Of a stretch of 40,159 nt of DNA, positions 1 to 40,159 are shown one piece after another (position 1 is the first letter of the stretch; every line of letters starts with the position of its first letter). The notes under the pieces are model-generated. The model saw only the letters and a program-made list of their open reading frames with translations, made no database searches and was not told the origin of the DNA. The position numbers and the translations under genes are program-made. Location: IMG/VR virus record IMGVR_UViG_3300028916_000007. The stretch is one strand, 5' to 3'. This stretch comes from a virus.

Positions 1-77
1 CCATGAAAAGCTGTGTCGAGTGTGGCTTTATGTGGCAATGAGATAATACCGTATTTTCCTAACTGCCTGAAGGTGCA
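1..77. repeat. Terminal direct repeat, copy 1 (contig self-overlap)
   Basis: ccatgaaaagctgtgtcgagtgtggctttatgtggcaatgagataataccgtattttcctaactgcctgaaggtgca is identical to 40083-40159. Confidence 0.95.
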
Positions 78-3308: not shown

Positions 3309-3592
3309 TCCCTGCCCATGCTCGTTTTTGCGACATCCAACAGCAGCCTGATTCTATCTGCCCTCATGCCAGCGAGCCTGTAGGCCCGCTGCGCTTCGGC
3401 CATTTTCGGCTGAAGGTCCTGGAGCTTCTTTTTGATCTGATCTGCTTTTCTCGACCCGTCCTTGAACTCCGCCAGATCCGCCGCGAGTTCCTGTTGCTTG
3501 TCTTCGATTTTCGCCAAATCCTGAAAAGCATTCTCAAGAGCGTCGAATGCCGCGTTTACGTCATCTACTGATATCGTTTTAATCAACTCCAT
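3305..3592 (-). CDS. Coiled-coil protein at the distal end of the tail-fibre operon (possible fibre assembly factor)
   Basis: The ATG at 3592 overlaps the TGA of the upstream fibre gene (TGATG). Heptad-rich, charged sequence. Confidence 0.4.
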   Translation of the reverse strand: MELIKTISVDDVNAAFDALENAFQDLAKIEDKQQELAADLAEFKDGSRKADQIKKKLQDLQPKMAEAQRAYRLAGMRADRIRLLLDVAKTSMGRD

Positions 3593-4293
3593 CAAATTTT
3601 CTGAATGTAACAAAGTGCTATGCAGAAGGGCAGGCTTGCCACCGCGTCTCCCGTGAAGCTCGTGCCTTCTGCTGCGCTGTGGCCGTGTGACGATCCGCTT
3701 CCCGCCGATCCGACGCTTGATCCGGTTTTTGCATAGAGAGCAATCTCGCTGCCACTATAGGCATCGTCCCACGCCGCAGGCCGAGTATCAGAATATGTGT
3801 GCGAGTGTGCCGCCATTTCTCCGATCGTCACTGCATGGCCGTCCACCGCAATTGTTCCGGTCGCGTTGAATGTAGTCGATCCGCCTGTGTCGCCCGGGGA
3901 ATAGGTAGATCCTGCCCCAATCACAAAGCGGTCCCGGAGGTCTATTGTGCCGCCCGAGCCATCGCATAGAGCCCATCCAGACGGAATAGAGGCAATCGAC
4001 CCATACCACATCACCACCAGGCCAACCGGGACGCCTAGGCCTGCGAAACTTGCTGCATGTAGATTGCCCGTGCTCTTGTAGATCAGGTCGGCATCTGATC
4101 CAGAGCCGCTGCCATCATTGCCAGAATACCAAAAAGTAGCTTGCATCTCCGTTTTCGTGTAATAGCTTCCGTCATGCGCATGAGTGGCGAGATAACTAGA
4201 CAACTCTGTATATATAGTCTCGAAGTTGTCCATTTTGCTGGTGGTGATAAGATCATCCTCTGCCCAAGGATCTTCGTTTTTCGTATATGTCAA
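3592..4293 (-). CDS. Tail fibre protein with phage tail-collar domain (paralogue 3)
   Basis: 233 aa. Motifs are SIPSGWALCDG, IDLRDRFVIGAGSTYSPGDTGG and HSHTY, the collar-domain signature G-W-x-CDG...DLR-R...G. Confidence 0.7.
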   Translation of the reverse strand: MTYTKNEDPWAEDDLITTSKMDNFETIYTELSSYLATHAHDGSYYTKTEMQATFWYSGNDGSGSGSDADLIYKSTGNLHAASFAGLGVPVGLVVMWYGSIASIPSGWALCDGSGGTIDLRDRFVIGAGSTYSPGDTGGSTTFNATGTIAVDGHAVTIGEMAAHSHTYSDTRPAAWDDAYSGSEIALYAKTGSSVGSAGSGSSHGHSAAEGTSFTGDAVASLPFCIALCYIQKI

Positions 4294-4305
4294 AACTCAT
4301 CACTC

Positions 4306-5025
4306 CTATGCATATTTCATGATGTAATATAAGCCATGAAACGCCGGGCGGGGATCAATGGCAGCAAAGCTCGCCGTAGATCCTGCATGCGTGTGGGTGC
4401 CATCGCCGGTCACCATCACATCAGTCGTGCGACCAACCGACGTATAGCTATCATCAGGCGTGTCATAATAATCAATCGAATAAAAATAACCATCTCCAGC
4501 CCACACGCCGCTATATTCGATGAATGTATGGGCATGCGTCGGCAATTCGGCGGTCGTGAGGGCATGATCCCCAATCGTAACGCTGCCGGTTGGCGTTATG
4601 GTGCCATTCCACGAAGCCGGGCCTCCTGTATCATTTACTGCATAGGCACTCCCCGCACCAACAACGAACCTGTCTCTTAGATCAGGAGTCGCATAACCCC
4701 CATAGGTTCCACCATCACAGATGTGCCAGTTCGTGGGTACATTCGCATCAGTGCCAGACCATATCATTATACAGCCGAGGGGCATAACGGCGGCTACCAG
4801 ATCGCTGAAATGATTGCCATCCAACTTGTCGGCGTCGAATCCGATATAGAATGACGTGGTAAAAAATGTTGCATCTGATAGCGTTTTCGTGTAATATCTG
4901 GCGTCGTGGTTATGGGCGTCGGCATCAGCTTTCGCTTCATCCCATTGAGTCTCTATCCAGTTAAAGGCGGCTCCGGTCAATTGGTCAGAAGACATCCACG
5001 GATAATTATATTTAATATAGCCCAA
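4306..5025 (-). CDS. Tail fibre protein with phage tail-collar domain (paralogue 2)
   Basis: 239 aa. Motifs are VPTNWHICDG, PDLRDRFVVGAGSAYAVNDTGG, HAHTF and a DADKLDGNH fibre motif. Confidence 0.7.
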   Translation of the reverse strand: MGYIKYNYPWMSSDQLTGAAFNWIETQWDEAKADADAHNHDARYYTKTLSDATFFTTSFYIGFDADKLDGNHFSDLVAAVMPLGCIMIWSGTDANVPTNWHICDGGTYGGYATPDLRDRFVVGAGSAYAVNDTGGPASWNGTITPTGSVTIGDHALTTAELPTHAHTFIEYSGVWAGDGYFYSIDYYDTPDDSYTSVGRTTDVMVTGDGTHTHAGSTASFAAIDPRPAFHGLYYIMKYA

Positions 5026-5060
5026 ATAACCACCCCCTAATTAAAACCGATTCAAGTCGA

Positions 5061-5762
5061 TCACGCCTTTTGGATATAACAAGCCGCGTAATATTGCGGC
5101 ATCTTGGTCTGCCCCGATGTCCCCGTAAAGCTCGCGGTGTGAGAATGCGCATCACCCGAGCCAGTTGAACCGGTAGATAAGCCAGTCACCGTACTCTGCA
5201 GACCGGCCCCGACCAGTCCCGCCCCCCACGTGCCCCATTTGCTATTTCGGTTTCCGCTATAATAATCCGTATATGTGTGTGTGTGCTTTGCTATCTCTCC
5301 TGCCGTTAGCGCGTGCCCAGCAACCGTTATAGTTGCCGTTGTGGTTACGGTATTTGCTCCACCTGTATCTCCTTTCGAGTAGTGGCTTCCAGCTCCCACT
5401 ACAAACCTATCTCGCAGGTCGGGTGTACCGTTTAGGCCATTGCAGAGCAGCCACCCGGACGGGATTGAAGCCTCGCTTCCTGACCACCAAGCGATTACAC
5501 CAGATGGCGATCCGGCAGCTATGATCTGATCGCTCGTGTAGTCATCCAGGGTTGCGGCGATCAGGCCGGAACCAGCGCCGTCGTTGGCTGAGGTGAAATA
5601 GCGGGCGGCGGCTTCTGCTTCGGTATAGTACCGCTCGCTATGGGTGATGGCATCGATATATGAGCATGCCTGAGAGTACATGCCTTCCAGATTGTCCAGT
5701 GCCGTGAGCTTTTGCGCTGTGGTATGGCCGTGCTCCAACCATGTCGTCTTGCTGTAGCTCAT
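5061..5762 (-). CDS. Tail fibre protein with phage tail-collar domain (paralogue 1)
   Basis: 233 aa. Motifs are SIPSGWLLCNG, PDLRDRFVVGAGSHYSKGDTGG and HTHTY. Confidence 0.7.
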   Translation of the reverse strand: MSYSKTTWLEHGHTTAQKLTALDNLEGMYSQACSYIDAITHSERYYTEAEAAARYFTSANDGAGSGLIAATLDDYTSDQIIAAGSPSGVIAWWSGSEASIPSGWLLCNGLNGTPDLRDRFVVGAGSHYSKGDTGGANTVTTTATITVAGHALTAGEIAKHTHTYTDYYSGNRNSKWGTWGAGLVGAGLQSTVTGLSTGSTGSGDAHSHTASFTGTSGQTKMPQYYAACYIQKA

Positions 5763-7561: not shown

Positions 7562-9261
7562 AACTCCGCAGATATCGCTATATATGCCGCCGTGTCGTTC
7601 TCAGCCGCGAACTGGTAGTTCCGCCAATCCGCAAGCGCATCCGTCATGGTGGATATCAGGAGCGTGACATATTTCCCTGCAGTATATCCCTCCAACGAGA
7701 TGGCATTGCATGTGTATATCGTTGTTCCATCATAAAGGCAAAAAGTACCGCTCACATCTATCGATATTGCAGCACAGCGCATTTCAGGATGGAAAACCAT
7801 GATCTGTGCGTTTCCGTCCGCGCTTTTAATTCCGGTACCTAATCGGTGATAGGTCTTGCCCGCCGCGCCATCCTTCCAGTAGAAATACGTGCAATGAGCC
7901 AACTCTTGCTTGTAGTCGCGCGGGAGAAATGGGAGGCACACGGCACCGGCATTAAGCTGCACATCTGAAATATATAGCAAATCATCGACCACTGCATCGG
8001 TATCATCTACCCAGATGAAAACCGCTAGATTCGCCATGCTGGCTGTATCGATGCTGATGTTTTCGATTTTGTGTATTGTCCAGGTATCGGCCACGAGTGC
8101 CATGTTTGCTGGTACGTTCTCCGCCGTCCAGTTTGCCGCCAACGTGGGGTTCGCACCTTCAGCACCCCATGATGCAACTACGTCGCTGGTGACAACATCT
8201 GCAGTAGACGACCAAGACAGCACTGCCACCCGGATATTCTCGATGACCTTCCCCGTCACTGTCCGGGCCTTGAATTGCAGGCTGGCTGTCTTCCCTGCGT
8301 ATCGAATAGAATCCTTACTTTCGATGATTTGCAGAATTCCAAATTTCTTGTTTTGTGTCTCGACTTCGAACTTAGCGGACGCGGCGCCGCCTGTTGGTAC
8401 GACTGATGCATCCTGGCTGACATCAACGATATCATTTCCATCAGAAAGCAGTATCCAGCGATCTATTAGATACGTATCGTCTGAATTGGCTGGCGTAGTT
8501 GCTGAGGTGAACACCGTTGCCCTTTGAGATATCTGGAAAGAGCCGTTTACTAATGCCTGGCGATATACGCCGTCCGTCATCAGATCGGCCCAGGAAAGCC
8601 CCGCGGCCTGGGCTATATCTGCTATGAGAGTCTGCCCATTGGTGCCGACTCCGAGCCTTGCCGGGGTGCTGGCGGCGGTCGCTGCCCACATATCCCCCTT
8701 CGTGGTGAGGTCGGCTTTGAGCGGCATTGCAAGGATTGTTTGGGCCTCTGATAAGGTTTTCTTGACAAATGCCCCTGATTCAGAGGCTACAAGGAAATCA
8801 TTGGCCGCCGTGGCCAATGAGTGTTTCAGGAAGGCCGTGTCATGCAGGCCATCCAGGAGATCCACATTCAGGTTGGCGACTTTCACGGCGCTCGTGATTG
8901 TCATTGGGGCAGCACCGCCATCGGCCAGATCCAGATTCAGAGACTGGGCTCGTATCTCGTAGGCACCGAAATCCACATTGCCGCCCACCGCCGTAACTGG
9001 CCAGACTTGCCGCCACACTGCGCCCCCAGTGGATGCATCCACGCACTCCCAAATGGCCGTCGTAGTGTACCATCTGCTGCCGGTTGCATAGCCTTCGCTA
9101 TCATCGTTGTCTGCATCCGGATCTAGCGCCCCGGCATTCCAATTGCTTTTTGCTAGATAGGCATCTATGATATCGGCATTCGTATTGAAATATGAAATCA
9201 GATTGGCGCGGGTAGAGACTCCCGCGACAAGTTTCTCCAGTGCTATTCGTGTAGTCGTCAT
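7558..9261 (-). CDS. Tail fibre / receptor-binding-like protein
   Basis: 567 aa, immediately downstream of the tape measure. The N-terminal motif DDSEGYATGSRWYTTTAIWECVDASTGGAVW and LNVDLLDGLHDTAF are typical of phage fibre proteins. Confidence 0.5.
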   Translation of the reverse strand: MTTTRIALEKLVAGVSTRANLISYFNTNADIIDAYLAKSNWNAGALDPDADNDDSEGYATGSRWYTTTAIWECVDASTGGAVWRQVWPVTAVGGNVDFGAYEIRAQSLNLDLADGGAAPMTITSAVKVANLNVDLLDGLHDTAFLKHSLATAANDFLVASESGAFVKKTLSEAQTILAMPLKADLTTKGDMWAATAASTPARLGVGTNGQTLIADIAQAAGLSWADLMTDGVYRQALVNGSFQISQRATVFTSATTPANSDDTYLIDRWILLSDGNDIVDVSQDASVVPTGGAASAKFEVETQNKKFGILQIIESKDSIRYAGKTASLQFKARTVTGKVIENIRVAVLSWSSTADVVTSDVVASWGAEGANPTLAANWTAENVPANMALVADTWTIHKIENISIDTASMANLAVFIWVDDTDAVVDDLLYISDVQLNAGAVCLPFLPRDYKQELAHCTYFYWKDGAAGKTYHRLGTGIKSADGNAQIMVFHPEMRCAAISIDVSGTFCLYDGTTIYTCNAISLEGYTAGKYVTLLISTMTDALADWRNYQFAAENDTAAYIAISAEL

Positions 9262-12200
9262 CTTACCGGCACTGCTCCATTCAGTTTCAGTTGTTTCACT
9301 ACTCGATCCATTAGGGCATTAGTGACTTCCTTCCCATCCAGATACCAGCGGTGCTCTGTGTGATCTTCTATGACGATTGGCCGTGATCCTGCGCTACCCA
9401 ATCCGGCATCGGCGAGCGACAGGAACATTCGCGTGAGCTTGGCCGGAAGAATCAGCTCCGGCCCGGCCTCGCCTGCTATCACTTTCTGCGGTCCGTCGTC
9501 TATCAGTGCCCCACGAGCGGCGAAAATCCAGGGCAACTGATAGCCTCCGCCTCCACCGCCTCCACCAATGTAGCGATCATCCAAAGGCATGATCGAATCC
9601 CGAACGGCCCGATTGTAGTCAGGGCATCCGCCCCCCAATGGGCATGGGCCCGTAGTGGTCTGTCTGTATCCATTAGTTGACCAATCCCCGGTTGGCGCTA
9701 GCCAATCGTCATCGCCGCCGAAATTCCAATCCATGTACCCGCCGCCTCCGCCGCCACCGCCATATCCGCTATTGATGCTGGCATTGATGTTCACAGATAC
9801 ATTTATCTTGGCCAGTTCCGTTGCAATTTCAGTGCACGCCTCTTGTATCTGTGTCTGAGCTTCGGATAGATCTGTGAGCATCTGGTCCCAGGTTTCGGCC
9901 CACTTTGTAGCCCAGGCGGTGAGTGCGCCTTCTGCATTGAGAATCATCTGGTTTATCGCGTCAACCGTGCTCGTTCCGGCGTCCGTCATGGCGGATGTTA
10001 GTCCGGTTTTGACCTCATCTACATAGCCCGATATGCTCGGCCACATCTCTGAGAAGGCGGACTTCACACCTGTCAGTATCTCCTGGAAGGAAGTGATTGA
10101 AGTATTGCGGACATCGATGATGGCTTCCCAAGCGCTGTCGCGAAAAGTCGTAACCTCGGCAGTCAGCACTGTATTGATCTGCTTCCAATAGGTCGCGCCC
10201 TCGCTTTTGATTATGCCCCAGGATATCCTGAAGAAATCTTTCAGACTGTTTATGACTCGCTGCACCTGCTTGCTCATGCTGGCCAGGCCCGTGATGCTGA
10301 AATAAGCGGCCATCGCGTCAGGATCTACAGCGGCAGCAGTGCCACCGGTTGCCGTGCCCTCGGCGAAGCCCCTGACCCCATAGGCTCGCAAGGCTGCATA
10401 GAGCAGATCCCACCGCTTGGTTTTGGTGGGGATGACAAATTCGGGATTGGCTGGACCATCCTCACCAATGACGGCCAGCTCCGGCCCGCTGGTCACCGTT
10501 CCGCTGGCGTATAGGTGGCCGAACGGATTCTCTGTGAATAGTTTGGAAGCGGCTGAGCTTACGGCGCTGGCGGCGCTCCGAAGCGATCCCGCGCCCGTGC
10601 TCAGCGCGCTACCTGCATCCGATCCGCCCGACCTGATTGCGCTACCGGCGTTGTAGCTTTTTGTGAGGATGTCGGATGCCCCTAGGCTCAGCTTCGAGGC
10701 AGCGTTCCCGGCACCGTTCTGGATGGCAGAGCCTGCGTATGTGCCCTTGAGCTGAAAATCACTCGCAGCGGCATTAATCTTAGCGGCCAGAGCGGCTCCG
10801 GCACCGCCCGCGCTGGTCTGGATGGCTGAGCCTGCATACTGTATCTTGCTCTGCAGGCCACTGATAGCGGCGGATACCGCGCCGGAAAAGCTTGATCCGG
10901 CCACCTGCACGCGATCGTACAGGATTCCGCCAGCTTCGGCGAATCTCTGCTGAGCCACCTGGCCGATGATGGCTATTTCTCTGCCCGCGCTATCCAGGCC
11001 GATCCTGACGCTTCCCGCCCCTATCTCAGAGCCTATCTTGATGGCGTTGGCAGCTTCTTTTGATCCGCCGATGAGGGTACGATATAGCTCCTGCGCTGCT
11101 GATTTTTCGGTCGACGCGGCATCCTTCGCGGCTTCAGTTGTGGTGGCCGCTGCTTCTTCCGCAGCTTCCGTTTCGATCTCAGCTTCCTCCTCGGCAGCAG
11201 CGATCTCTATCTCTGCCGCTTCTTCTGCGGCGGTCTTGTGGGCTGCATCGTATTCGGCCTGGCCTTTGGCGAACTCTGCCATGATTGGCGCAAGGTCTTC
11301 GGGTCGTATGTATCCGTCTGGAGCGGACTCAGACAACAATTTTTTAGTACTTTCGAAGTTTGCTCCGGTCAATCCCATTTGGTATGCCCAATCTTTCGCA
11401 GATACATCGGGCACAACAGTTTTTATTTTTGGATCTTCCCACGGCTTGAGTTTATACTCGCCGTTCATCCAATAGCCTTTCATTTGGCCGCCGCCTGGAC
11501 CAACCGAACCCGATATGGATTTTATCTTTTCGGTGATGTCCTCGCCGGCGACTGTGGTCACAACGGTTACCGATCTGGTTTCACCATCTTCGGGCAGTGA
11601 ACTCCCGCCGAGCCAGTCCACCGTAGCGGCTATTGTGGTATCAAAGTCCGATGCTTCCCAAATGCCCTCTGCATCTTTTCGCCACTGGGTGGCCTGCTCG
11701 ATGATGCTATCCCCGGCCCCTTCCCATGCAGAGTTCATGGCTCCGCCGATGATCTCCAGGATGGCTGCGCCTATTGTGCCCTTTCCAGCAGTCAGAACGG
11801 TATTGGCGAAGCCTGTCACGAAATCGTAGGCCGCTTTGAGTGCCGTCTTCCCGAAGTCTATTGCAGAGTGGAATAGCGCCGAAAAATTGCTGCCTATTGA
11901 GCTGCCGTTGCTCTTCCAGTAGTCGGCGATCTTGTCATAGATCCATTTTCCAAGATCTACGACCCCCTTCACAACTGAATGAGCGAAGCTCTCGCCGAGC
12001 TTCTTCGGACCGTCCTCTGCTATCCAGCTATCCCATCCAGTCTTGATTTTCTCGTAGATTGACTTGGCATAGTCAGCAACTTTTCCGAGCCCGGCCTTGA
12101 TCTTGTCTCCAATCTCTTTTCCAGCCGTGGCAAAATCCACTGAGCTGATACCGGATTTGAATTCCGTCCAAAATTCTTTCAGCTTCGCTAGACCGGCCTT

Positions 12201-14729
12201 GATCTTCTCGGATATGGAGCTTCCGGCGCCGGACCAATCAGCCGAAGTCAGGTAGTCCCAGACCTTCTGCCCGATGTCAGCCAGGGCGGTGATCGCATCT
12301 CGAATAGCCTGCCCGATCTTGAAGCCGACCGTGCCCCAATCGATGCTATCAAAATATCCTAAGATGGTGCTGCCCACATCGGAGAGCTTCGCTATCGCAG
12401 CGTCCCAGGCAGATACCAGGGAGTCCCAGACTCCGCCCCAATCCACATTCTTGAAATCTTCGTACAGACCTTTGGCAATGTCGGACCCGAACGCGAAAGC
12501 AGATTTCAGAGCTTCCATCGCAGCCGTGCCCGCCGCGGCGGCATAGCCTTTCAGGGCTTCCCATCCGGTCCCAATGGCCTTGGCTATATCAGACCCAACA
12601 CCAGACCAGTTGATATTCTTGATATAGTCTACCGAGCTTGAAAACGCGGCCTTGAGTCGGGTAACTACCGCACTGAAATCACCCTTCTTGGCGGCCTCCC
12701 AACAATCGGATACTACCGATTTCAGGCCCTTCAGCGCGTTCGAACCAATTTTTCCCAGCGTGGTGAACTTCGATGGATCGGCGGCTAATCCAATCGCCGC
12801 CAGGCCTGCCCCGATGAGGAGCAGAGGAGCTGCCAGGGCGGCGGCCATACCAGCAACGGAAGCAACGACGCCCGTCACCATCGACGCGAATCCGGCCAAC
12901 GTCCCGGCGACCATAGCAGCTACAGACGCGAGTGCACCCGCTGCCATTTTCGCATATCCCGCCAGAGTGGCAGTTGTCATCGTGCTGAGTCGCAGGGCGG
13001 CATTCATGGCCATAGAACCGAATGCAGCCGCCACACTGGCAGCCATCGATAACGCTGAAGCCACTGCGCCCAAAGCCATAGCGGCAAACTTCCCTATGGT
13101 GCTGGTTGCCATCATGCCCATGTTGGCGGCAGCGGTAGCAGCCATCGTCGCATATCCTGCCAAGGTGATCTCGACTGTCAAGGCCATGCTAGCCACGGCA
13201 GCAAGCTTCATCGAAAGCCAGGAAGCAATAGCCTGCGCCTTCATGGATGCCCAGGAAGATACTGACGCTGCCACCATCGAGGCAAAGCCAGATACGTGAG
13301 CGGCTACCATAGCAGCGATAGAAGCTGCTGTACCCGCCACCATTGCCGCCGCAGAGGCCACGACACCAGCTGCCATCGAGGCAGCGACGGGGATCAGGGA
13401 TGCTAAGCCCGCCGCAAATACCGCTATTCCTGCCCCTGTAGCAAGCCCTGCTACAGCGGATTTGATTTTTTCCACCGTAATCCCTATCTGAGCGCCGGCT
13501 GCTGAGAAATCGCCTGCTGATAGAGCTTCGATGAAAGAGCGGATGGCAGGTGCGCCCTCTGCTGAAAACCATTCGAAAGCGCTCTTCAGAGTCGGAGCGA
13601 GCTTGCCGCCGATCAGGTAGGCCAGTGAGGAGGCCGCACCCATGGCGGCGTCTAGAGAGCCGCCCAATTTATCAAGCATGAACTTGGCCATTGTCTCTGC
13701 GGCGCCGCCGCAGTTGAGCAGACCCTGCCGAAACTTCTCGATCTGATCGGTATTGGATGCCAGACTGTAGAGCAATCCGCCTTCGGCACCAAATATTTTC
13801 GTGAATGCGGAAAGTCCTTGCCCAGAAGCATCTGCCTGACTTTCCATCTTTGCCAGGATGTCCACAAAATCATTGCTCCTGGGATCTACATCTGCCATGG
13901 ATAGGCCGATAGCATCCAGGCCATCGCTGAGCGATTGGGTGGGCGTGATCAGGGTATTGATCGCCCCCCTCAGAGCGGTTCCTGCCTTTTCGCCCTTGAT
14001 GTTTGACTGACTAAATGTTTCAAGGCAGGCGGTCAAGGTCTCAAAACCGACATTTGCGACACTGGCGACTGGCCCGGCCTGTTGCATGGCATAATTCAGG
14101 TCGCCCATCCCGGCGGCCGAAGCACCACATGCAGTAGTGTAGACATCAGCGATATGGCCGAGATCCTCAACTCCCTTGCCGAAGGTATTCATGGCGGCGA
14201 GGGCCATGTCCGCGGAATCCCCCAGATCATAGTTCGTCGCGGTTGCTAGAGCCAACACGGGCGCGAGATCTTCCGCGCTTGCCGTGGCCACATCGAAGCC
14301 TTGAGCTGCGAGATTGGCGCAAGCCTGGGCTATTTGGGTAGGATCGAATGCGTTTGTGTTGAGCTGGCCCAACTCATCAGCCAGGCCCATCACGTGCTCC
14401 TTCACGCCGGTGAAAGCCTCCTCCATCGACTTGCCACTGGCTTGGGCGATGGCCGAGAGATCCATCTTGGAAGCGGCATCGGCGGCGGCAGATTCGATGT
14501 CCATATAGGTCTTGACACCCACAGTGGCCACGCCAACAAGAGCCGCACCGGCAGCGACCGCTCCGGTAGTCAGAGCCGAGCCGATAGCAGAGCCTACGCT
14601 CTTGGCCTTGCCTTCCATAGCATCCACTGCACTGGAAAACTTGGATTTGGCGCCAGACAACCCAGAGTCTAGCTTAGAGTCATCCAGGCCCAGTGTGGCG
14701 TATGCGCTCCCGACTTCCGCTGATGGCAT
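9258..14729 (-). CDS. Tail tape measure protein
   Basis: 1823 aa and the largest ORF. It has a long Ala/Met/Ser-rich hydrophobic repeat region, repeated W/D-containing ~40-aa units, two GPE-x-VIGE-GPE-xxIP motifs and Gly8 runs near the C-terminus. It is preceded by a chaperone gene pair. Confidence 0.85.
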   Translation of the reverse strand: MPSAEVGSAYATLGLDDSKLDSGLSGAKSKFSSAVDAMEGKAKSVGSAIGSALTTGAVAAGAALVGVATVGVKTYMDIESAAADAASKMDLSAIAQASGKSMEEAFTGVKEHVMGLADELGQLNTNAFDPTQIAQACANLAAQGFDVATASAEDLAPVLALATATNYDLGDSADMALAAMNTFGKGVEDLGHIADVYTTACGASAAGMGDLNYAMQQAGPVASVANVGFETLTACLETFSQSNIKGEKAGTALRGAINTLITPTQSLSDGLDAIGLSMADVDPRSNDFVDILAKMESQADASGQGLSAFTKIFGAEGGLLYSLASNTDQIEKFRQGLLNCGGAAETMAKFMLDKLGGSLDAAMGAASSLAYLIGGKLAPTLKSAFEWFSAEGAPAIRSFIEALSAGDFSAAGAQIGITVEKIKSAVAGLATGAGIAVFAAGLASLIPVAASMAAGVVASAAAMVAGTAASIAAMVAAHVSGFASMVAASVSSWASMKAQAIASWLSMKLAAVASMALTVEITLAGYATMAATAAANMGMMATSTIGKFAAMALGAVASALSMAASVAAAFGSMAMNAALRLSTMTTATLAGYAKMAAGALASVAAMVAGTLAGFASMVTGVVASVAGMAAALAAPLLLIGAGLAAIGLAADPSKFTTLGKIGSNALKGLKSVVSDCWEAAKKGDFSAVVTRLKAAFSSSVDYIKNINWSGVGSDIAKAIGTGWEALKGYAAAAGTAAMEALKSAFAFGSDIAKGLYEDFKNVDWGGVWDSLVSAWDAAIAKLSDVGSTILGYFDSIDWGTVGFKIGQAIRDAITALADIGQKVWDYLTSADWSGAGSSISEKIKAGLAKLKEFWTEFKSGISSVDFATAGKEIGDKIKAGLGKVADYAKSIYEKIKTGWDSWIAEDGPKKLGESFAHSVVKGVVDLGKWIYDKIADYWKSNGSSIGSNFSALFHSAIDFGKTALKAAYDFVTGFANTVLTAGKGTIGAAILEIIGGAMNSAWEGAGDSIIEQATQWRKDAEGIWEASDFDTTIAATVDWLGGSSLPEDGETRSVTVVTTVAGEDITEKIKSISGSVGPGGGQMKGYWMNGEYKLKPWEDPKIKTVVPDVSAKDWAYQMGLTGANFESTKKLLSESAPDGYIRPEDLAPIMAEFAKGQAEYDAAHKTAAEEAAEIEIAAAEEEAEIETEAAEEAAATTTEAAKDAASTEKSAAQELYRTLIGGSKEAANAIKIGSEIGAGSVRIGLDSAGREIAIIGQVAQQRFAEAGGILYDRVQVAGSSFSGAVSAAISGLQSKIQYAGSAIQTSAGGAGAALAAKINAAASDFQLKGTYAGSAIQNGAGNAASKLSLGASDILTKSYNAGSAIRSGGSDAGSALSTGAGSLRSAASAVSSAASKLFTENPFGHLYASGTVTSGPELAVIGEDGPANPEFVIPTKTKRWDLLYAALRAYGVRGFAEGTATGGTAAAVDPDAMAAYFSITGLASMSKQVQRVINSLKDFFRISWGIIKSEGATYWKQINTVLTAEVTTFRDSAWEAIIDVRNTSITSFQEILTGVKSAFSEMWPSISGYVDEVKTGLTSAMTDAGTSTVDAINQMILNAEGALTAWATKWAETWDQMLTDLSEAQTQIQEACTEIATELAKINVSVNINASINSGYGGGGGGGGYMDWNFGGDDDWLAPTGDWSTNGYRQTTTGPCPLGGGCPDYNRAVRDSIMPLDDRYIGGGGGGGGYQLPWIFAARGALIDDGPQKVIAGEAGPELILPAKLTRMFLSLADAGLGSAGSRPIVIEDHTEHRWYLDGKEVTNALMDRVVKQLKLNGAVPVR

Positions 14730-20069: not shown

Positions 20070-20215
20070 CCTTCCCCCCGGATGATCGCCTTCCGCCGAA
20101 CCGTGCCCACTGCTATCTGATTGAGCTTTTCATCGCAGATGCTTCGCATGTGGCGGATCTCTGCCTCAGTCCAGCTATTCATGATTGCCCGCCAATCTAT
20201 ATCAGTGAACCTCAT
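20066..20215 (-). CDS. Unannotated 49-aa protein
   Basis: Hand translation gives MRFTDIDWRAIMNSWTEAEIRHMRSICDEKLNQIAVGTVRRKAIIRGEG. ATGA overlaps with both neighbours (20212-20215 and 20066-20069). Confidence 0.45.
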   Translation of the reverse strand: MRFTDIDWRAIMNSWTEAEIRHMRSICDEKLNQIAVGTVRRKAIIRGEG

Positions 20216-20622
20216 GAATCCTCCCAATCCGGCCCGGCCAACTCAGTAGACTCAAACTCGTCTGGATATCCGGCCACATCCGCCACCTGCCCCGCTTCCG
20301 GTGCCGTGAAGCTGGCGTTCTCCATGGCAGCCTCGTCTTCCAGCGCCGCAATCACATTCAGCATGGCCTTGTGGCGCTGGCTCCTGGAGGTCTTCAGGCC
20401 ATCAATGTCCTTGTCGAACTCCTTTGCCAGCTTCGCGGCTGCGGCTTTTGCGGCCTTCAGAGCGCCGCCTAGGAGGTCCGATCCTGCCTGGGCATAGAAG
20501 AAAGCGATGGCCTCATCACTCAGAATGGGATCTGTGGTCACATCCACATCCCCGATCATGCCCCTGATCTGGTCCCGGACCAGGGAGAAGTCGGCGGCGA
20601 AGGTATATGTCGGCGCGGTCAT
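20212..20622 (-). CDS. Head-tail connector-like protein (gp6-like position)
   Basis: 136 aa and acidic. SLVRDQIRGMIGDVDVTTDPILSDEAIAFFYAQAG resembles connector/adaptor N-termini. GAGG SD upstream. Confidence 0.4.
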   Translation of the reverse strand: MTAPTYTFAADFSLVRDQIRGMIGDVDVTTDPILSDEAIAFFYAQAGSDLLGGALKAAKAAAAKLAKEFDKDIDGLKTSRSQRHKAMLNVIAALEDEAAMENASFTAPEAGQVADVAGYPDEFESTELAGPDWEDS

Positions 20623-20752
20623 AAAACCTCATGAAAACGTATAGTGACGATTAATCTTCTTTATTGCAGATAAAAACGGCAAATGTGATTCATATCTCTT
20701 CAACTGGTCCATCAGTACGGTCGATCCAGTGAACGTGACATGTTGCTTGGCG

Positions 20753-20868
20753 TCTGTGACTGCGTGGCAACTGATATTCGAATTCGTATCCGACTGCTGA
20801 TTATTCGCATTACGTGCCTGCGAACTGCAATTCGTGGCATTATTCCAATTGCTGCCTGCAATAACTGC
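20753..20868 (-). repeat. DGR template repeat (TR): adenine-rich donor copy
   Basis: Gapless match to 20932-21047 (offset 179). All but one difference lie at positions where this copy has A on the minus strand. Its translation is Asn-rich (SNWNNATNCSSQARNANNQQSDTNSNIS). It lies ~54 nt downstream of the target gene's stop. Confidence 0.85.
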
Positions 20869-20921
20869 TCGACTCGCCCAACCTATTACCGGCCTACGCT
20901 TCACATAGGCACGAATAACGA

Positions 20922-22025
20922 CTACTGTGGCTCCGCGACCGCGCGGCAACCGACAGCCGAACCCACATCCGACCGCCGATTAGACGCACCACGCGCCCGC
21001 GAACCGCAATACGCGGCATTACTCCAAACGCCGCCCGCAATAACCGCAGCTTGTGCCTGGTATGTCCCTTGGCCATAATGAGATCCTCTGGTGCCAGAAA
21101 TATTTTCGTATCCGAACGCGATCGCCGCTGCATAATCCGCGCCTGCTATGTAGCTCTGCTGATTCTGAAGCCAAGTCCACCAGACACCGGACATGTCTTC
21201 CAAGCCGATATTGCTAATCATGCGACGGCCCGTGGTTGATATATGCCCACCCACGGTCGTTGGGTTTGTCGATCCTGCGATATTGACTTCTTCTTCTTGA
21301 CCTGCGTGTAGCTGAGCAAACTCCCAGTCGTCCATCATCCGGGCACCGATGTTCTTCAGGTCATCGGCGAAATCATAGAAATTCCTGGAAACGGACGCGA
21401 CTGCTCCGAATACGGATGCGATAGATGCCCCAGTCCCACTGAGGAGGTAGATCGATGCCCAGAGGGGTGCATAATTCAGGCTGTCGAAGTCGGTAGGGCC
21501 GCCCCACGCAAAGCCTGGAAGGAAGCGCCCATAAGGCCGGTGCAGGAGATCCTGGATGGAGCGGGGTAGGACGTCCCCGGCCAGGTATCCGGTCAGGGAG
21601 TGCCCGCTGATCGTGCCCACTGCCACGCATTCGCAATGAAACATTCCAATTTTCCGGCTGGTGCTGGTCGTGTAGCCAGCCGGAGCAGTGGCGTTGGCAG
21701 ATACCACGAAATCCGGCACCCGTCCGCTTGTTGGCTCGCAGGCGTAAAGTCTGAAGTCCTGCCCGGCCCGATTAGCAGCGATCCTGTAGTCGGTAGCTAC
21801 GGAGTCCCATGCAGACTCATCTGAGAGGTCTAGCTCAACCTCCTCCGGATTGTAATATCCCAGACCATTGATCGAGAGCCGCATCTCGGGAATTATGAGG
21901 AGATACCGATCTGCCCCGGTAGTGCCGCCTGGATATGGCGGCGTCTCGCGCTCGTATGCGCCTAGCCCCTGGGCAGCATTCCGATGCACCAGGGCAGGCG
22001 TAAGGAATTGCCCAGGGATTTTCAT
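20922..22025 (-). CDS. DGR target (variable) protein with C-type-lectin / FGE-sulfatase-like C-terminal domain
   Basis: 367 aa. The C-terminal signature GGVW....YCGSRARG.......VGCRAV matches DGR variable proteins (compare GGSW..N.CRSA.R.......GFR..). The VR lies in its last codons. Confidence 0.8.
   Translation of the reverse strand: MKIPGQFLTPALVHRNAAQGLGAYERETPPYPGGTTGADRYLLIIPEMRLSINGLGYYNPEEVELDLSDESAWDSVATDYRIAANRAGQDFRLYACEPTSGRVPDFVVSANATAPAGYTTSTSRKIGMFHCECVAVGTISGHSLTGYLAGDVLPRSIQDLLHRPYGRFLPGFAWGGPTDFDSLNYAPLWASIYLLSGTGASIASVFGAVASVSRNFYDFADDLKNIGARMMDDWEFAQLHAGQEEEVNIAGSTNPTTVGGHISTTGRRMISNIGLEDMSGVWWTWLQNQQSYIAGADYAAAIAFGYENISGTRGSHYGQGTYQAQAAVIAGGVWSNAAYCGSRARGASNRRSDVGSAVGCRAVAEPQ
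20932..21047 (-). repeat. DGR variable repeat (VR) forming the C-terminal ~38 codons of the target gene
   Basis: Same alignment as the TR. It encodes AGGVWSNAAYCGSRARGASNRRSDVGSAVGCRAVAE. The GC-rich 3' end (GTTGCCGCGCGGTCGCGGAG on the coding strand) is a candidate IMH. Confidence 0.85.
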
Positions 22026-22337
22026 CTAGGCCGCCTCGTAGCGATCTAGCATTCCCTGGAGATCTACCTGATCAGCGAATCCGTATCTCTGCCACGTCGG
22101 TATCCAGTTGGGATCTATGCTCGTGATCGGGACATCGATATAATTTTCAGACCCCTCTGGAGATTCAATCTGAGTGGTCGTTGGCTCCACGAGCATGTAC
22201 TGCAGGAGTCCGATGCCTTTCGCAATCAGCTGATCCTTTGCGTTGCGTTCCCTGCGAGTCTTTGTCGGAAGCTCCAACACATTCTCAAAGTCTTGTCTTG
22301 TCGCAAATCCCATATCAGATGTTGATTTCAGTATCAT
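22026..22337 (-). CDS. Hypothetical protein of the DGR-target module
   Basis: 103-aa ORF whose stop abuts the start of the target gene. Confidence 0.4.
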   Translation of the reverse strand: MILKSTSDMGFATRQDFENVLELPTKTRRERNAKDQLIAKGIGLLQYMLVEPTTTQIESPEGSENYIDVPITSIDPNWIPTWQRYGFADQVDLQGMLDRYEAA

Positions 22338-28608: not shown

Positions 28609-29220
28609 CTAAGTCCTCTTGCCCTTCAAACGAGACTGCCCCCAACCACAATCTACCGCGCCCGCGTTCTGTTCTGCCCACCAGGCCGCCATAGCCACCG
28701 ATAGCACCAGATCATCATGGTCTGCCTCTCGCCAGGCCGAATAAGAATCGTGTGCGGTGACCGGATCGATTTTGACCTTGAAATTCAGAAGCTCGTTCTG
28801 CAAAACCGATGCCAACGGCAGCTTCTTAGAGATCTTTAGCCTGCCGCCCTGAAAGAGCACTTGTAGGCTGCCCACCAGGTCGCGCTTGGGAACCCGCCAG
28901 GTGTCGCCCTCATGAGATGCCTTGTCACCACCATGAATTAGCACGCCCACCGGATCGAGCCCCGCCTGCCTGAAGAGATCGACCACCGGCGCGCCCACCC
29001 CCGTCTGATCGACCACAAGGGCAGCCTGGCCCGCCAGGGCAGGAGATCTCATGATCTCTGTGACTTTGGACACGATCTGAGGATAGGGCACGCCCCGGAC
29101 GCGCTCCAGATGCCTGACCTGATAGGAAGACTCGCTGCCTGGGGCCACCTGATCAAGCACAGAAAGGGCTGTATAGTCGCTGCTCTGGCCGAGATCGAGA
29201 CCTACGTAGAATTTTGACAT
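28609..29220 (-). CDS. terL: Terminase large subunit, C-terminal RNase H-like nuclease domain (separate ORF)
   Basis: 203 aa. It starts MSKFYVGLDLGQSSDYTAL (first catalytic Asp motif) and ends with READHDDLVLSVAMAAWW. Its ATG shares one nt with the TGA of the ATPase ORF. Confidence 0.8.
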   Translation of the reverse strand: MSKFYVGLDLGQSSDYTALSVLDQVAPGSESSYQVRHLERVRGVPYPQIVSKVTEIMRSPALAGQAALVVDQTGVGAPVVDLFRQAGLDPVGVLIHGGDKASHEGDTWRVPKRDLVGSLQVLFQGGRLKISKKLPLASVLQNELLNFKVKIDPVTAHDSYSAWREADHDDLVLSVAMAAWWAEQNAGAVDCGWGQSRLKGKRT

Positions 29221-30002
29221 CAGAACAACGGCTCCACATCATCACTAATTGCTTCTGCTATCATATCGTAGCTGAAGACACTATCTATATTTTCAGTGAA
29301 GGCACAATGATATTCCTGCTCGAACCAGGGGTTTGTTCGCTTCTCTTCTGCTATGAACTCTTTCGTTATGCGTGGGCACATTTCCGCCGGGATTTCATGT
29401 GCTTCCCACAAATCCCGCTGCTCGCTCCAGATATTCCAGAAGTGCCCCCGCTTGCCAAAAGGAGTGCTCATCAGGATATGCCTGCCATTGGACACGGCGA
29501 GCATGGGCCTGACCGTATTGTAGAGCACATCCAAAACCCGGCTCGCTTCGTCTTCCAGCAGCAGAGTCACTGCCGAGAAGGATCTTGCGCTCTTCTCGGA
29601 CCCCGGACGAGCTATGAAGCGATTGCCATTCGCGAATCGGACTGCAAGTTTTGTGTCGGTGCTCAGATAGTCGGAAGGTAGTTCAACCGCGCCCCGGAAC
29701 TCATCGAACTTGAGCATCAACTCAGAGCTCTGGTCTTGAGTGGGAGCGATCACAAGCCCGAAAGAAGGCCTGCGATAGATGGACTCATGAAGCCCCAGGG
29801 CGGCGCATGTTGTACTTTTTCCGCTCTGACGCGAGCAATTGAGGATGATCTTCCTCGAGCGGCTGCGGAGGAGATCGGCCTGCCAGGGATCAGGATGATA
29901 GCCCAGGACTTCCTTGCACCATAAGACAGGATCGGCCCCGTAAACAAGGTCATCGGCCACGGATGGCATTGACAACAGCCGCCTTTGCTTCGGGATACGC
30001 AT
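29220..30002 (-). CDS. terL: Terminase large subunit, N-terminal ATPase domain (separate ORF)
   Basis: 260 aa. Walker A is CSRQSGKSTT and Walker B is VTLLLEDEAS. Confidence 0.85.
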   Translation of the reverse strand: MRIPKQRRLLSMPSVADDLVYGADPVLWCKEVLGYHPDPWQADLLRSRSRKIILNCSRQSGKSTTCAALGLHESIYRRPSFGLVIAPTQDQSSELMLKFDEFRGAVELPSDYLSTDTKLAVRFANGNRFIARPGSEKSARSFSAVTLLLEDEASRVLDVLYNTVRPMLAVSNGRHILMSTPFGKRGHFWNIWSEQRDLWEAHEIPAEMCPRITKEFIAEEKRTNPWFEQEYHCAFTENIDSVFSYDMIAEAISDDVEPLF

Positions 30003-39940: not shown

Positions 39941-40123
39941 GTGAAAATAATGAAATGTCCGAAATGTGGATCACATAACACCAAAGGCGGCCCACTTGGG
40001 TGGGTGAAATGGGCAATAGTTGTCATGGGATGTTTTCTGTTCTTTGTACCGGGGCTCATCCTCTATCTGATCTGGAGGCATCCCATGAAAAGCTGTGTCG
40101 AGTGTGGCTTTATGTGGCAATGA
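39941..40123 (+). CDS. Zinc-ribbon membrane protein
   Basis: 60 aa with CPKC...(TM helix WAIVVMGCFLFFVPGLILYLIW)...CVEC. Its 3' end lies within the terminal repeat. Confidence 0.55.
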   Translation: MKIMKCPKCGSHNTKGGPLGWVKWAIVVMGCFLFFVPGLILYLIWRHPMKSCVECGFMWQ

Positions 40124-40159
40124 GATAATACCGTATTTTCCTAACTGCCTGAAGGTGCA
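40083..40159. repeat. Terminal direct repeat, copy 2 (contig self-overlap)
   Basis: Identical to nt 1-77. It cuts through the 3' end of CDS 39941-40123. Confidence 0.95.

Follow-up and report, generated by a model that had tools for sequence, protein, structure and literature searches.

The window, by which is meant the whole 40,159-nucleotide stretch of viral DNA that was analysed (IMG/VR record IMGVR_UViG_3300028916_000007), carries on its minus strand the target gene and both repeats of a diversity-generating retroelement (DGR). The target gene (20922..22025, minus strand) encodes a 367-aa Mtd-like protein, matching Pfam mtd_2nd (2.4e-14) and the tail protein family phrog_11262 (6e-37), with 43-45% identity to the target protein of Caudoviricetes sp. 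vir525 and 28% to BPP-1 Mtd. The variable repeat (VR; 116 nt, 20932..21047, minus strand) lies at its 3' end, where the protein has a weak match (0.03) to Pfam FGE-sulfatase (C-lectin-type). Downstream, the template repeat (TR; 20753..20868, minus strand) is intact, contains 37 adenines, and aligns to the VR without gaps over 116 nt, in a register of 179 nt. The repeats differ at 28 TR adenines (23 A>G, 3 A>T and 2 A>C), and at one non-adenine position (TR C20786 / VR T20965). Hence two of the features by which a DGR is recognised, adenine-limited TR/VR differences and a VR at the 3' end of a known type of target gene, are present. The strong A>G bias in the window VR (23/28) compares with 12/28 in the related locus L010 and 15/30 in L023, both of which are intact, and 17/27 in L008, which has no reverse transcriptase (RT); several TR adenines are G in all VRs examined, including at synonymous GCA>GCG changes.

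A third feature, the target-site elements, was found at positions conserved among relatives. The VR ends in an invariant, IMH-like GC-rich stretch (GGTTGCCGCGCGGTCGCGGA; 20932..20951, minus strand), which is near-constant in about 25 related VRs, with single-base variants in only four of them (L004-type, L007, L030 and L035), and at three positions of which the TR has A. It is followed by a hairpin read off the sequence (GCCTATG-TGAAG-CGTAGGC; 20892..20910, minus strand), with a 7-bp stem that includes one G-U pair. The position of this hairpin is kept in relatives, although its stem differs, being GCCTATG-CGCAG-CATAGGC in L010 and GGGGTGCG-GAAGT-CGCACCCC in L052. By analogy with BPP-1, where the hairpin acts in target recognition (PMC3240598), these elements may have the same roles here.

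The cassette is bounded upstream by a gene of the conserved backbone (22026..22337, minus strand; 103 aa). Its counterpart at the same place in L052, likewise 103 aa long and lying before the target, is 49% identical, and those in L063-L065 are 82-89% identical. Downstream is the next gene of the structural module (20212..20622, minus strand; 136 aa), which had been labelled head-tail connector-like but matches phrog_1732, a family of unknown function, whereas the connector and Neck1 matches are in genes further downstream. The target gene is itself mosaic in comparisons of L005 with L033 and L011, its N-terminal third being 30-58% diverged and the last ~600 nt before the VR 97-99% identical, a pattern suggesting that the C-terminal domain and the cassette may move between backbones via recombination.

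Genome context and the search for a reverse transcriptase

The window begins and ends with a 77-nt terminal direct repeat (1..77, plus strand, and 40083-40159), the two copies of which are 100% identical. It encodes an integrase, RecT, a D5-type primase-helicase, terminase, portal, capsid and a Mu-F-like protein, together with tail terminator, tail tube, tape measure and tail-collar proteins. On the basis of the terminal repeat and this set of modules, the window therefore looks like the complete genome of a temperate siphovirus; the same virus is present in NCBI GCA_029216075.1 as two contigs that sum to ~40.0 kb. Neither megablast nor blastn matched the structural region and terminase to GenBank phages. 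A Methanothrix-type methanogen is the most likely host, because vir525 is likewise assigned to Methanosarcinales. Bins holding relatives of the family (L026 and L061; proteins P0002, P0022, P0066, P0107 and P0132) are labelled Methanosaeta/Methanothrix, and also Deltaproteobacteria, Bacteroides, Desulfobacterales and Pacearchaeota, the non-methanogen labels looking like binning noise.

Several other features of the genome were observed. The large terminase (28609-30002, minus strand) is divided into two ORFs with an ATGA overlap at 29220, corresponding to Terminase_6N (29220-30002, 260 aa) and Terminase_6C (28609-29220, 203 aa). The same split recurs in two other assemblies (L059 and L060), and is therefore no random sequencing error; L052 and vir525 give no useful comparison at this point, their terminases having diverged too far from that of the window. 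Three adjacent paralogous ORFs of ~235 aa (3592-5762, minus strand) have a phage tail-collar domain, one above the Pfam cut-off and two weakly, share repeated DNA (4150-4189 / 4882-4921), and look like a small family of tail-fibre genes. The tape-measure gene (9258-14729, minus strand; 1823 aa) contains diverged internal repeats of ~49 nt at 12839-13382, at spacings of 33 to 396 nt.

The preliminary description of this DNA had reported that neither an RT nor an Avd gene was recognisable, and systematic searches of the window bore this out. Pfam found no RVT and no Avd family among about 50 ORFs, and no small basic helical ORF of the Avd (PF05635) type lies by the TR. The best tblastn E values were 0.27 for the vir525 RT, 0.13 for BPP-1 Brt and 1.4 for BPP-1 Avd. 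When a profile built from five DGR RTs was run, unfiltered, by hmmsearch against every segment of 15 aa or more in the six frames, the best E was likewise 1.4, while the positive controls were detected, with the L010 RT at 2.5e-201 and an RT remnant of just 22 aa in L003 at 2e-4. Hence the window has neither the RT nor the accessory protein expected of a DGR, and g52, the gene linked to RT in this clade, is reduced to its last ~40 codons. The expectation that an Avd should be found was, however, misplaced: about a quarter of known DGRs are without avd (PMC5758913), the intact relatives of this DGR clade have none either, and lacking Avd is characteristic of the clade as a whole.

The cassette of related viruses and the deletion junction

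Among GenBank records, the closest is that of Caudoviricetes sp. vir525 (BK063673.1), a virus assigned to a Methanosarcinales host, in which the target and VR are followed by the TR, a spacer of ~100 nt, the RT and g52 (vir525_00052, 95 aa), the start of g52 overlapping the RT stop. Its TR is 68% identical to that of the window. The same succession of RT then g52 is found in L010/L024, L013, L014, L020, L022, L023, L025, L048, L052, L053, L061 and L062, with L061 sitting in a MAG named Methanosaeta sp. In L052 (JBINOF010002582.1, 40.5 kb), the gene order of the window is matched from portal to tape measure, and the locus reads 103-aa gene, target, TR, spacer, RT (RVT_1), g52, and then a homologue of 20212-20622 directly after g52 (10296-10694; 37% identity); in L020 and L022, this homologue comes after g52-g51. 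The RT of the intact relatives is 35% identical to Brt and has the IGxxxSQ motif. No genome that was more than 90% related to the window and had an intact cassette was found, and we infer the ancestral state from relatives at 44-83% target identity. RT-less loci were ruled out as the ancestral form, as loci with RT and g52 span the deepest branches (41-45% target identity) and RT-less loci retain fragments of TR, RT or g52.

Two parts of this cassette are characteristic of the clade. Firstly, the spacer between the TR and the RT start (Sp) has conserved blocks, CUCCURGCUGG... and GGCAAAAYACACAACGGAG, in ten relatives, and a consensus fold of 25 pairs, 14 of which have compensatory changes. In its layout, a CUCC/GGAG helix surrounds one hairpin together with the block GGCAAAAYAC, and after these comes another hairpin rich in compensatory changes (L010 3422-3524; L001 20660-20762; L052 ~8880-9009). 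Rfam had no family for the window or L010. In BPP-1, template-primed synthesis of cDNA depends on almost the full length of the spacer (PMC6182149), and although those experiments involve Avd, which is absent from this clade, the conservation of Sp suggests that it would be essential here too. Secondly, g52 is always directly 3' of RT in this avd-less clade, overlapping the RT stop (L001 21775-22062; L010 4537-4821; L052 10001-10288), and the two are lost jointly. The g52 family, which comprises 47 protein clusters, has no Pfam match. The AlphaFold model of g52 (pLDDT 78.5) has a beta1-3/alpha/beta4-5 topology and is not a helical bundle, and its Foldseek matches were weak and to OB-type folds only (best E 0.035). 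The OB-like fold is a prediction of topology, not a family assignment, and we hypothesise that g52 is a candidate new DGR accessory protein that may bind nucleic acids. Both Sp and g52 are likely to be needed for function in this clade.

In the window, Sp is missing from downstream of the TR: its core had no matches at three or fewer mismatches, and the alignment to relatives breaks at the TR end. The ~130 nt at 20623-20752 had been taken for a non-coding spacer, but are instead the last ~40 codons and stop of the 95-aa g52. This remnant (20629..20751, minus strand; last 40 codons AKQHVTFTGSTVLMDQLKRYESHLPFLSAIKKINRHYTFS plus stop) was identified by tblastn, with 85% amino acid identity to the C-terminus of vir525_00052 (3e-21) and 75-82% identity to L010, L020 and L022; the translation of 20632-20751, which is followed directly by the stop, aligns with the invariant FTGS..Q..Y..PF..K core of the family. 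Folding of this stretch had been proposed as a check; the 150 nt after the TR fold no better than shuffled sequences (z = +1.14).

The boundaries of the missing DNA can be mapped against L010. In a blastn comparison, window 21683-20753 corresponds to L010 2491-3421, and window 20748-20626 to L010 4705-4827. What is absent, L010 3422-4704, is 1283 bp comprising Sp, the entire RT and the first ~55-56 codons of g52. The junction, at which the TR 3' end (..CACAGA) meets the interior of g52, was placed by blastn and alignments at 20749..20757 (minus strand), to within a few nt, and 2-3 nt of microhomology are possible at ..CACAGA|CGCC... Hence the locus has both of the marks of a degenerate DGR, a full cassette at the same position in L052, L010, vir525 and others, and a scar that corresponds to L010 3421/4705. 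The TR frame continues across the junction into the g52 remnant, giving a 106-aa ORF (20629-20949, minus strand) with a TTG start, which overlaps the end of the target gene, has no family match, and is probably a by-product of the deletion.

Recurrent RT loss among relatives

Reading the DNA after the VR in about 40 related loci revealed at least 14 different RT-destroying lesions, made up of microhomology deletions and IS605/TnpB replacements. Besides the window, in which the TR is joined to g52, these comprise L008, where RT and g52 have been removed between two TCATGA motifs with TR and Sp retained; further deletions of the L008 type in L006/L032 and in L007; two classes, the L004 group/L037 and L011/L027/L033/L044, with just ~20 nt of g52 left; L003/L029, where 11 nt of TR are joined to RT codons 31-52; L026, where an RT reduced to about 100 codons is fused to g52; L047 and L063, where an IS605-type TnpB gene replaces most of the cassette; and L028/L035, L030, L065 and L066, which are cut at or near the VR or at the TR start. 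A scan of genome contigs yielded one distant locus, the RT-truncated L026. The IS605-family TnpB/OrfB genes (L047 370-1494 and L063 2289-3455; 374 and 388 aa) stand in place of TR-Sp-RT-g52 or RT-g52, with fragments of RT and g52 on both flanks, and are two independent replacements. Site-specific excision was ruled out by endpoints that vary between cases.

The sublineage to which the window belongs, whose members have 80-87% target identity and upstream genes in common, accounts for four of these lesions (window, L063, L065 and L066). Within it no intact cassette was found, the sequence of L064 stopping inside Sp.

Origin of the locus

We consider it very probable that the locus is a recently inactivated DGR, from which the RT and Sp were lost by a deletion of ~1.28 kb. 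The ancestral cassette would have consisted of the Mtd-like target with its VR, a short gap with the hairpin, the TR, an Sp of ~100 nt, a DGR-type RT, g52 overlapping the RT stop, and the next structural gene. A single deletion, reaching from the final bases of the TR on the left to a point inside g52 on the right, possibly at 2-3 nt of microhomology, would have taken out Sp and the RT in full, along with ~55 codons from the start of g52. It would have spared the VR with its GC-rich end and hairpin, the TR, which is intact, and ~40 codons at the end of g52. Without an RT and a priming RNA the TR could not be copied, and the VR would therefore be frozen at the variant present when the enzyme was lost. 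Very recent RT loss was one of the options originally raised for this locus, and it is the one supported by the comparison of Sp-RT-g52 in relatives with the g52 end fused to the TR here.

The repeats also record past activity. The window TR differs at four positions from the TR common to L008, L010, L023, L025 and L048 (112/116 identical), and no JGI metagenome contig contains the TR string specific to the window. Two of the four are lineage-specific changes at non-adenine bases, each giving C (TR positions 18 and 33), and both are mirrored in the window VR; therefore the DGR worked in this lineage before it was lost. Since the last homing, no more than one or two substitutions have arisen. 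A single non-adenine TR/VR mismatch is no mark of decay, as it is also seen in the intact L010, and it is from the lack of drift that the loss is judged likely to be recent, in a loose sense. The VR is identical in four assemblies, at the level of consensus sequences from samples that may be related, and the target protein is the sole member of its 90%-identity cluster; judged from these sequences, the VR looks frozen.

That the VR might nevertheless still be rewritten is raised by loci that share a scar but not a VR. In such groups (L011, L027, L033 and L044; L004 vs L037), the VRs differ at 15-21 sites corresponding to TR adenines and at 0-4 sites elsewhere (Fisher p 1e-7 to 1e-11). Hence the DGR could be a shared good among these putative Methanothrix/Methanosarcinales viruses, with the VRs of RT-less genomes rewritten in trans by RT-encoding co-infecting relatives that have a near-identical TR, a proposal we regard as unlikely; most genomes of the family are RT-less and yet retain the VR, the GC-rich end and the hairpin. 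In that reading, the window could take part through its VR only, not its TR. Applied to this locus, it would mean that the TR is dead while the VR remains an acceptor, into which cDNA made from a near-identical TR of a co-infecting RT-encoding relative homes. The VR-side elements are indeed intact, but the window VR mirrors the lineage-specific bases of its own TR rather than the common TR, and is invariant across assemblies. Furthermore, the same-scar, different-VR pattern is explained equally well by recombination: when these loci, their flanks and their 90%-identity protein clusters were compared, the flanks were mosaic (upstream 97-99% and downstream 60-100% identical), clusters mixed loci with and without an RT, and RecT is encoded. 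Recurrent deletion or chimeric contigs could yield the pattern too. We therefore judge continued homing into the window VR to be improbable.

A still less likely explanation is trans servicing of the cassette, in which this TR is copied and the VR rewritten by an RT that is supplied by the host, by a co-resident provirus or by a co-infecting relative, as envisaged when the locus was first described as carrying only the cis parts of a DGR. There is a precedent, in that a plasmid-borne avd-TR-brt can diversify a VR in BPP-1, according to the account of Guo et al. given in PMC5758913. The TR is intact, the VR retains its GC-rich end and hairpin, and an RT-encoding locus (L052) and an RT-less one (L063) occur in one assembly (GCA_043955465.1). 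However, the covarying Sp that follows the TR in every intact relative is deleted here, and BPP-1 priming needs nearly all of its spacer (PMC6182149), leaving this proposal unsupported for this TR. The VR, moreover, is the same in four assemblies and belongs to a single-sequence 90%-identity protein cluster, and retention of the TR is explained simply by the position of the deletion endpoint, every other endpoint being seen in relatives.

That the RT was dropped in assembly or lies outside the contig is scarcely credible: metagenome assemblies may collapse or mis-join repeats such as the VR and TR, but the junction, where the end of the TR meets an internal site of g52, does not lie at a repeat, recurs base for base in three other assemblies made with different pipelines, and sits in a sequence with an exact 77-nt terminal repeat and a full module set. 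The early suggestion of an incomplete or chimeric assembly is thus unsupported. Junction, TR and VR are 100% identical, with no difference over 20600-21100, in JGI/IMG 3300028923, Logan SRR21915714 and NCBI GCA_029216075.1, the contig of the last differing from the window at seven sites in 20259-20310; this is therefore a real allele.

Compared with known systems, the window locus is a degenerate DGR of a known kind. It is similar to that of BPP-1 (mtd-avd-TR-brt) in its Mtd-homologue target, the VR at the target 3' end, the TR downstream, adenine-specific mismatches, and a GC-rich VR end followed by a hairpin. By contrast, this clade is without avd, has the TR directly after the target and a 95-aa g52, predicted to be OB-like, after the RT, while the RT and spacer are deleted in the window. 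The cassettes of vir525 and L052 are of the same family and order as that of the window, L052 also having the same gene neighbourhood, but both are intact, with Sp, RT and full g52, whereas the window is without 1.28 kb. In Nostoc PCC 7120, all3226 has a TR/VR pair with no RT gene or pseudogene nearby, which its authors read as removal of the machinery after fixation of a variant (Vallota-Eastman et al. 2020, PMC7517822). Both are TR/VR remnants without an RT, although all3226 is a chromosomal cyanobacterial paralogue, whereas the window is a complete viral genome with a mappable scar, and its relatives record a series of independent losses. In remote or trans DGR targets (Wu et al. 2018, PMC5758913), the TR and RT that diversify a VR are found elsewhere. 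Such systems also differ, in that an RT and a spacer-bearing TR are still encoded in their genomes, whereas the window genome has no RT.

In annotation, a clean TR/VR pair is no proof of an active DGR. Search pipelines that start from the RT are blind to RT-less cassettes, and DGR loss is consequently poorly documented; here, a series of at least 14 independent lesions has been mapped in viruses linked to methanogens, along with two conserved parts of an avd-less DGR clade, the structured Sp RNA and the 95-aa g52. The recurrent, family-wide loss is more interesting than the single locus, which is ordinary once explained. It suggests that viral DGRs are short-lived tools, dropped after a useful receptor-binding variant has been fixed.
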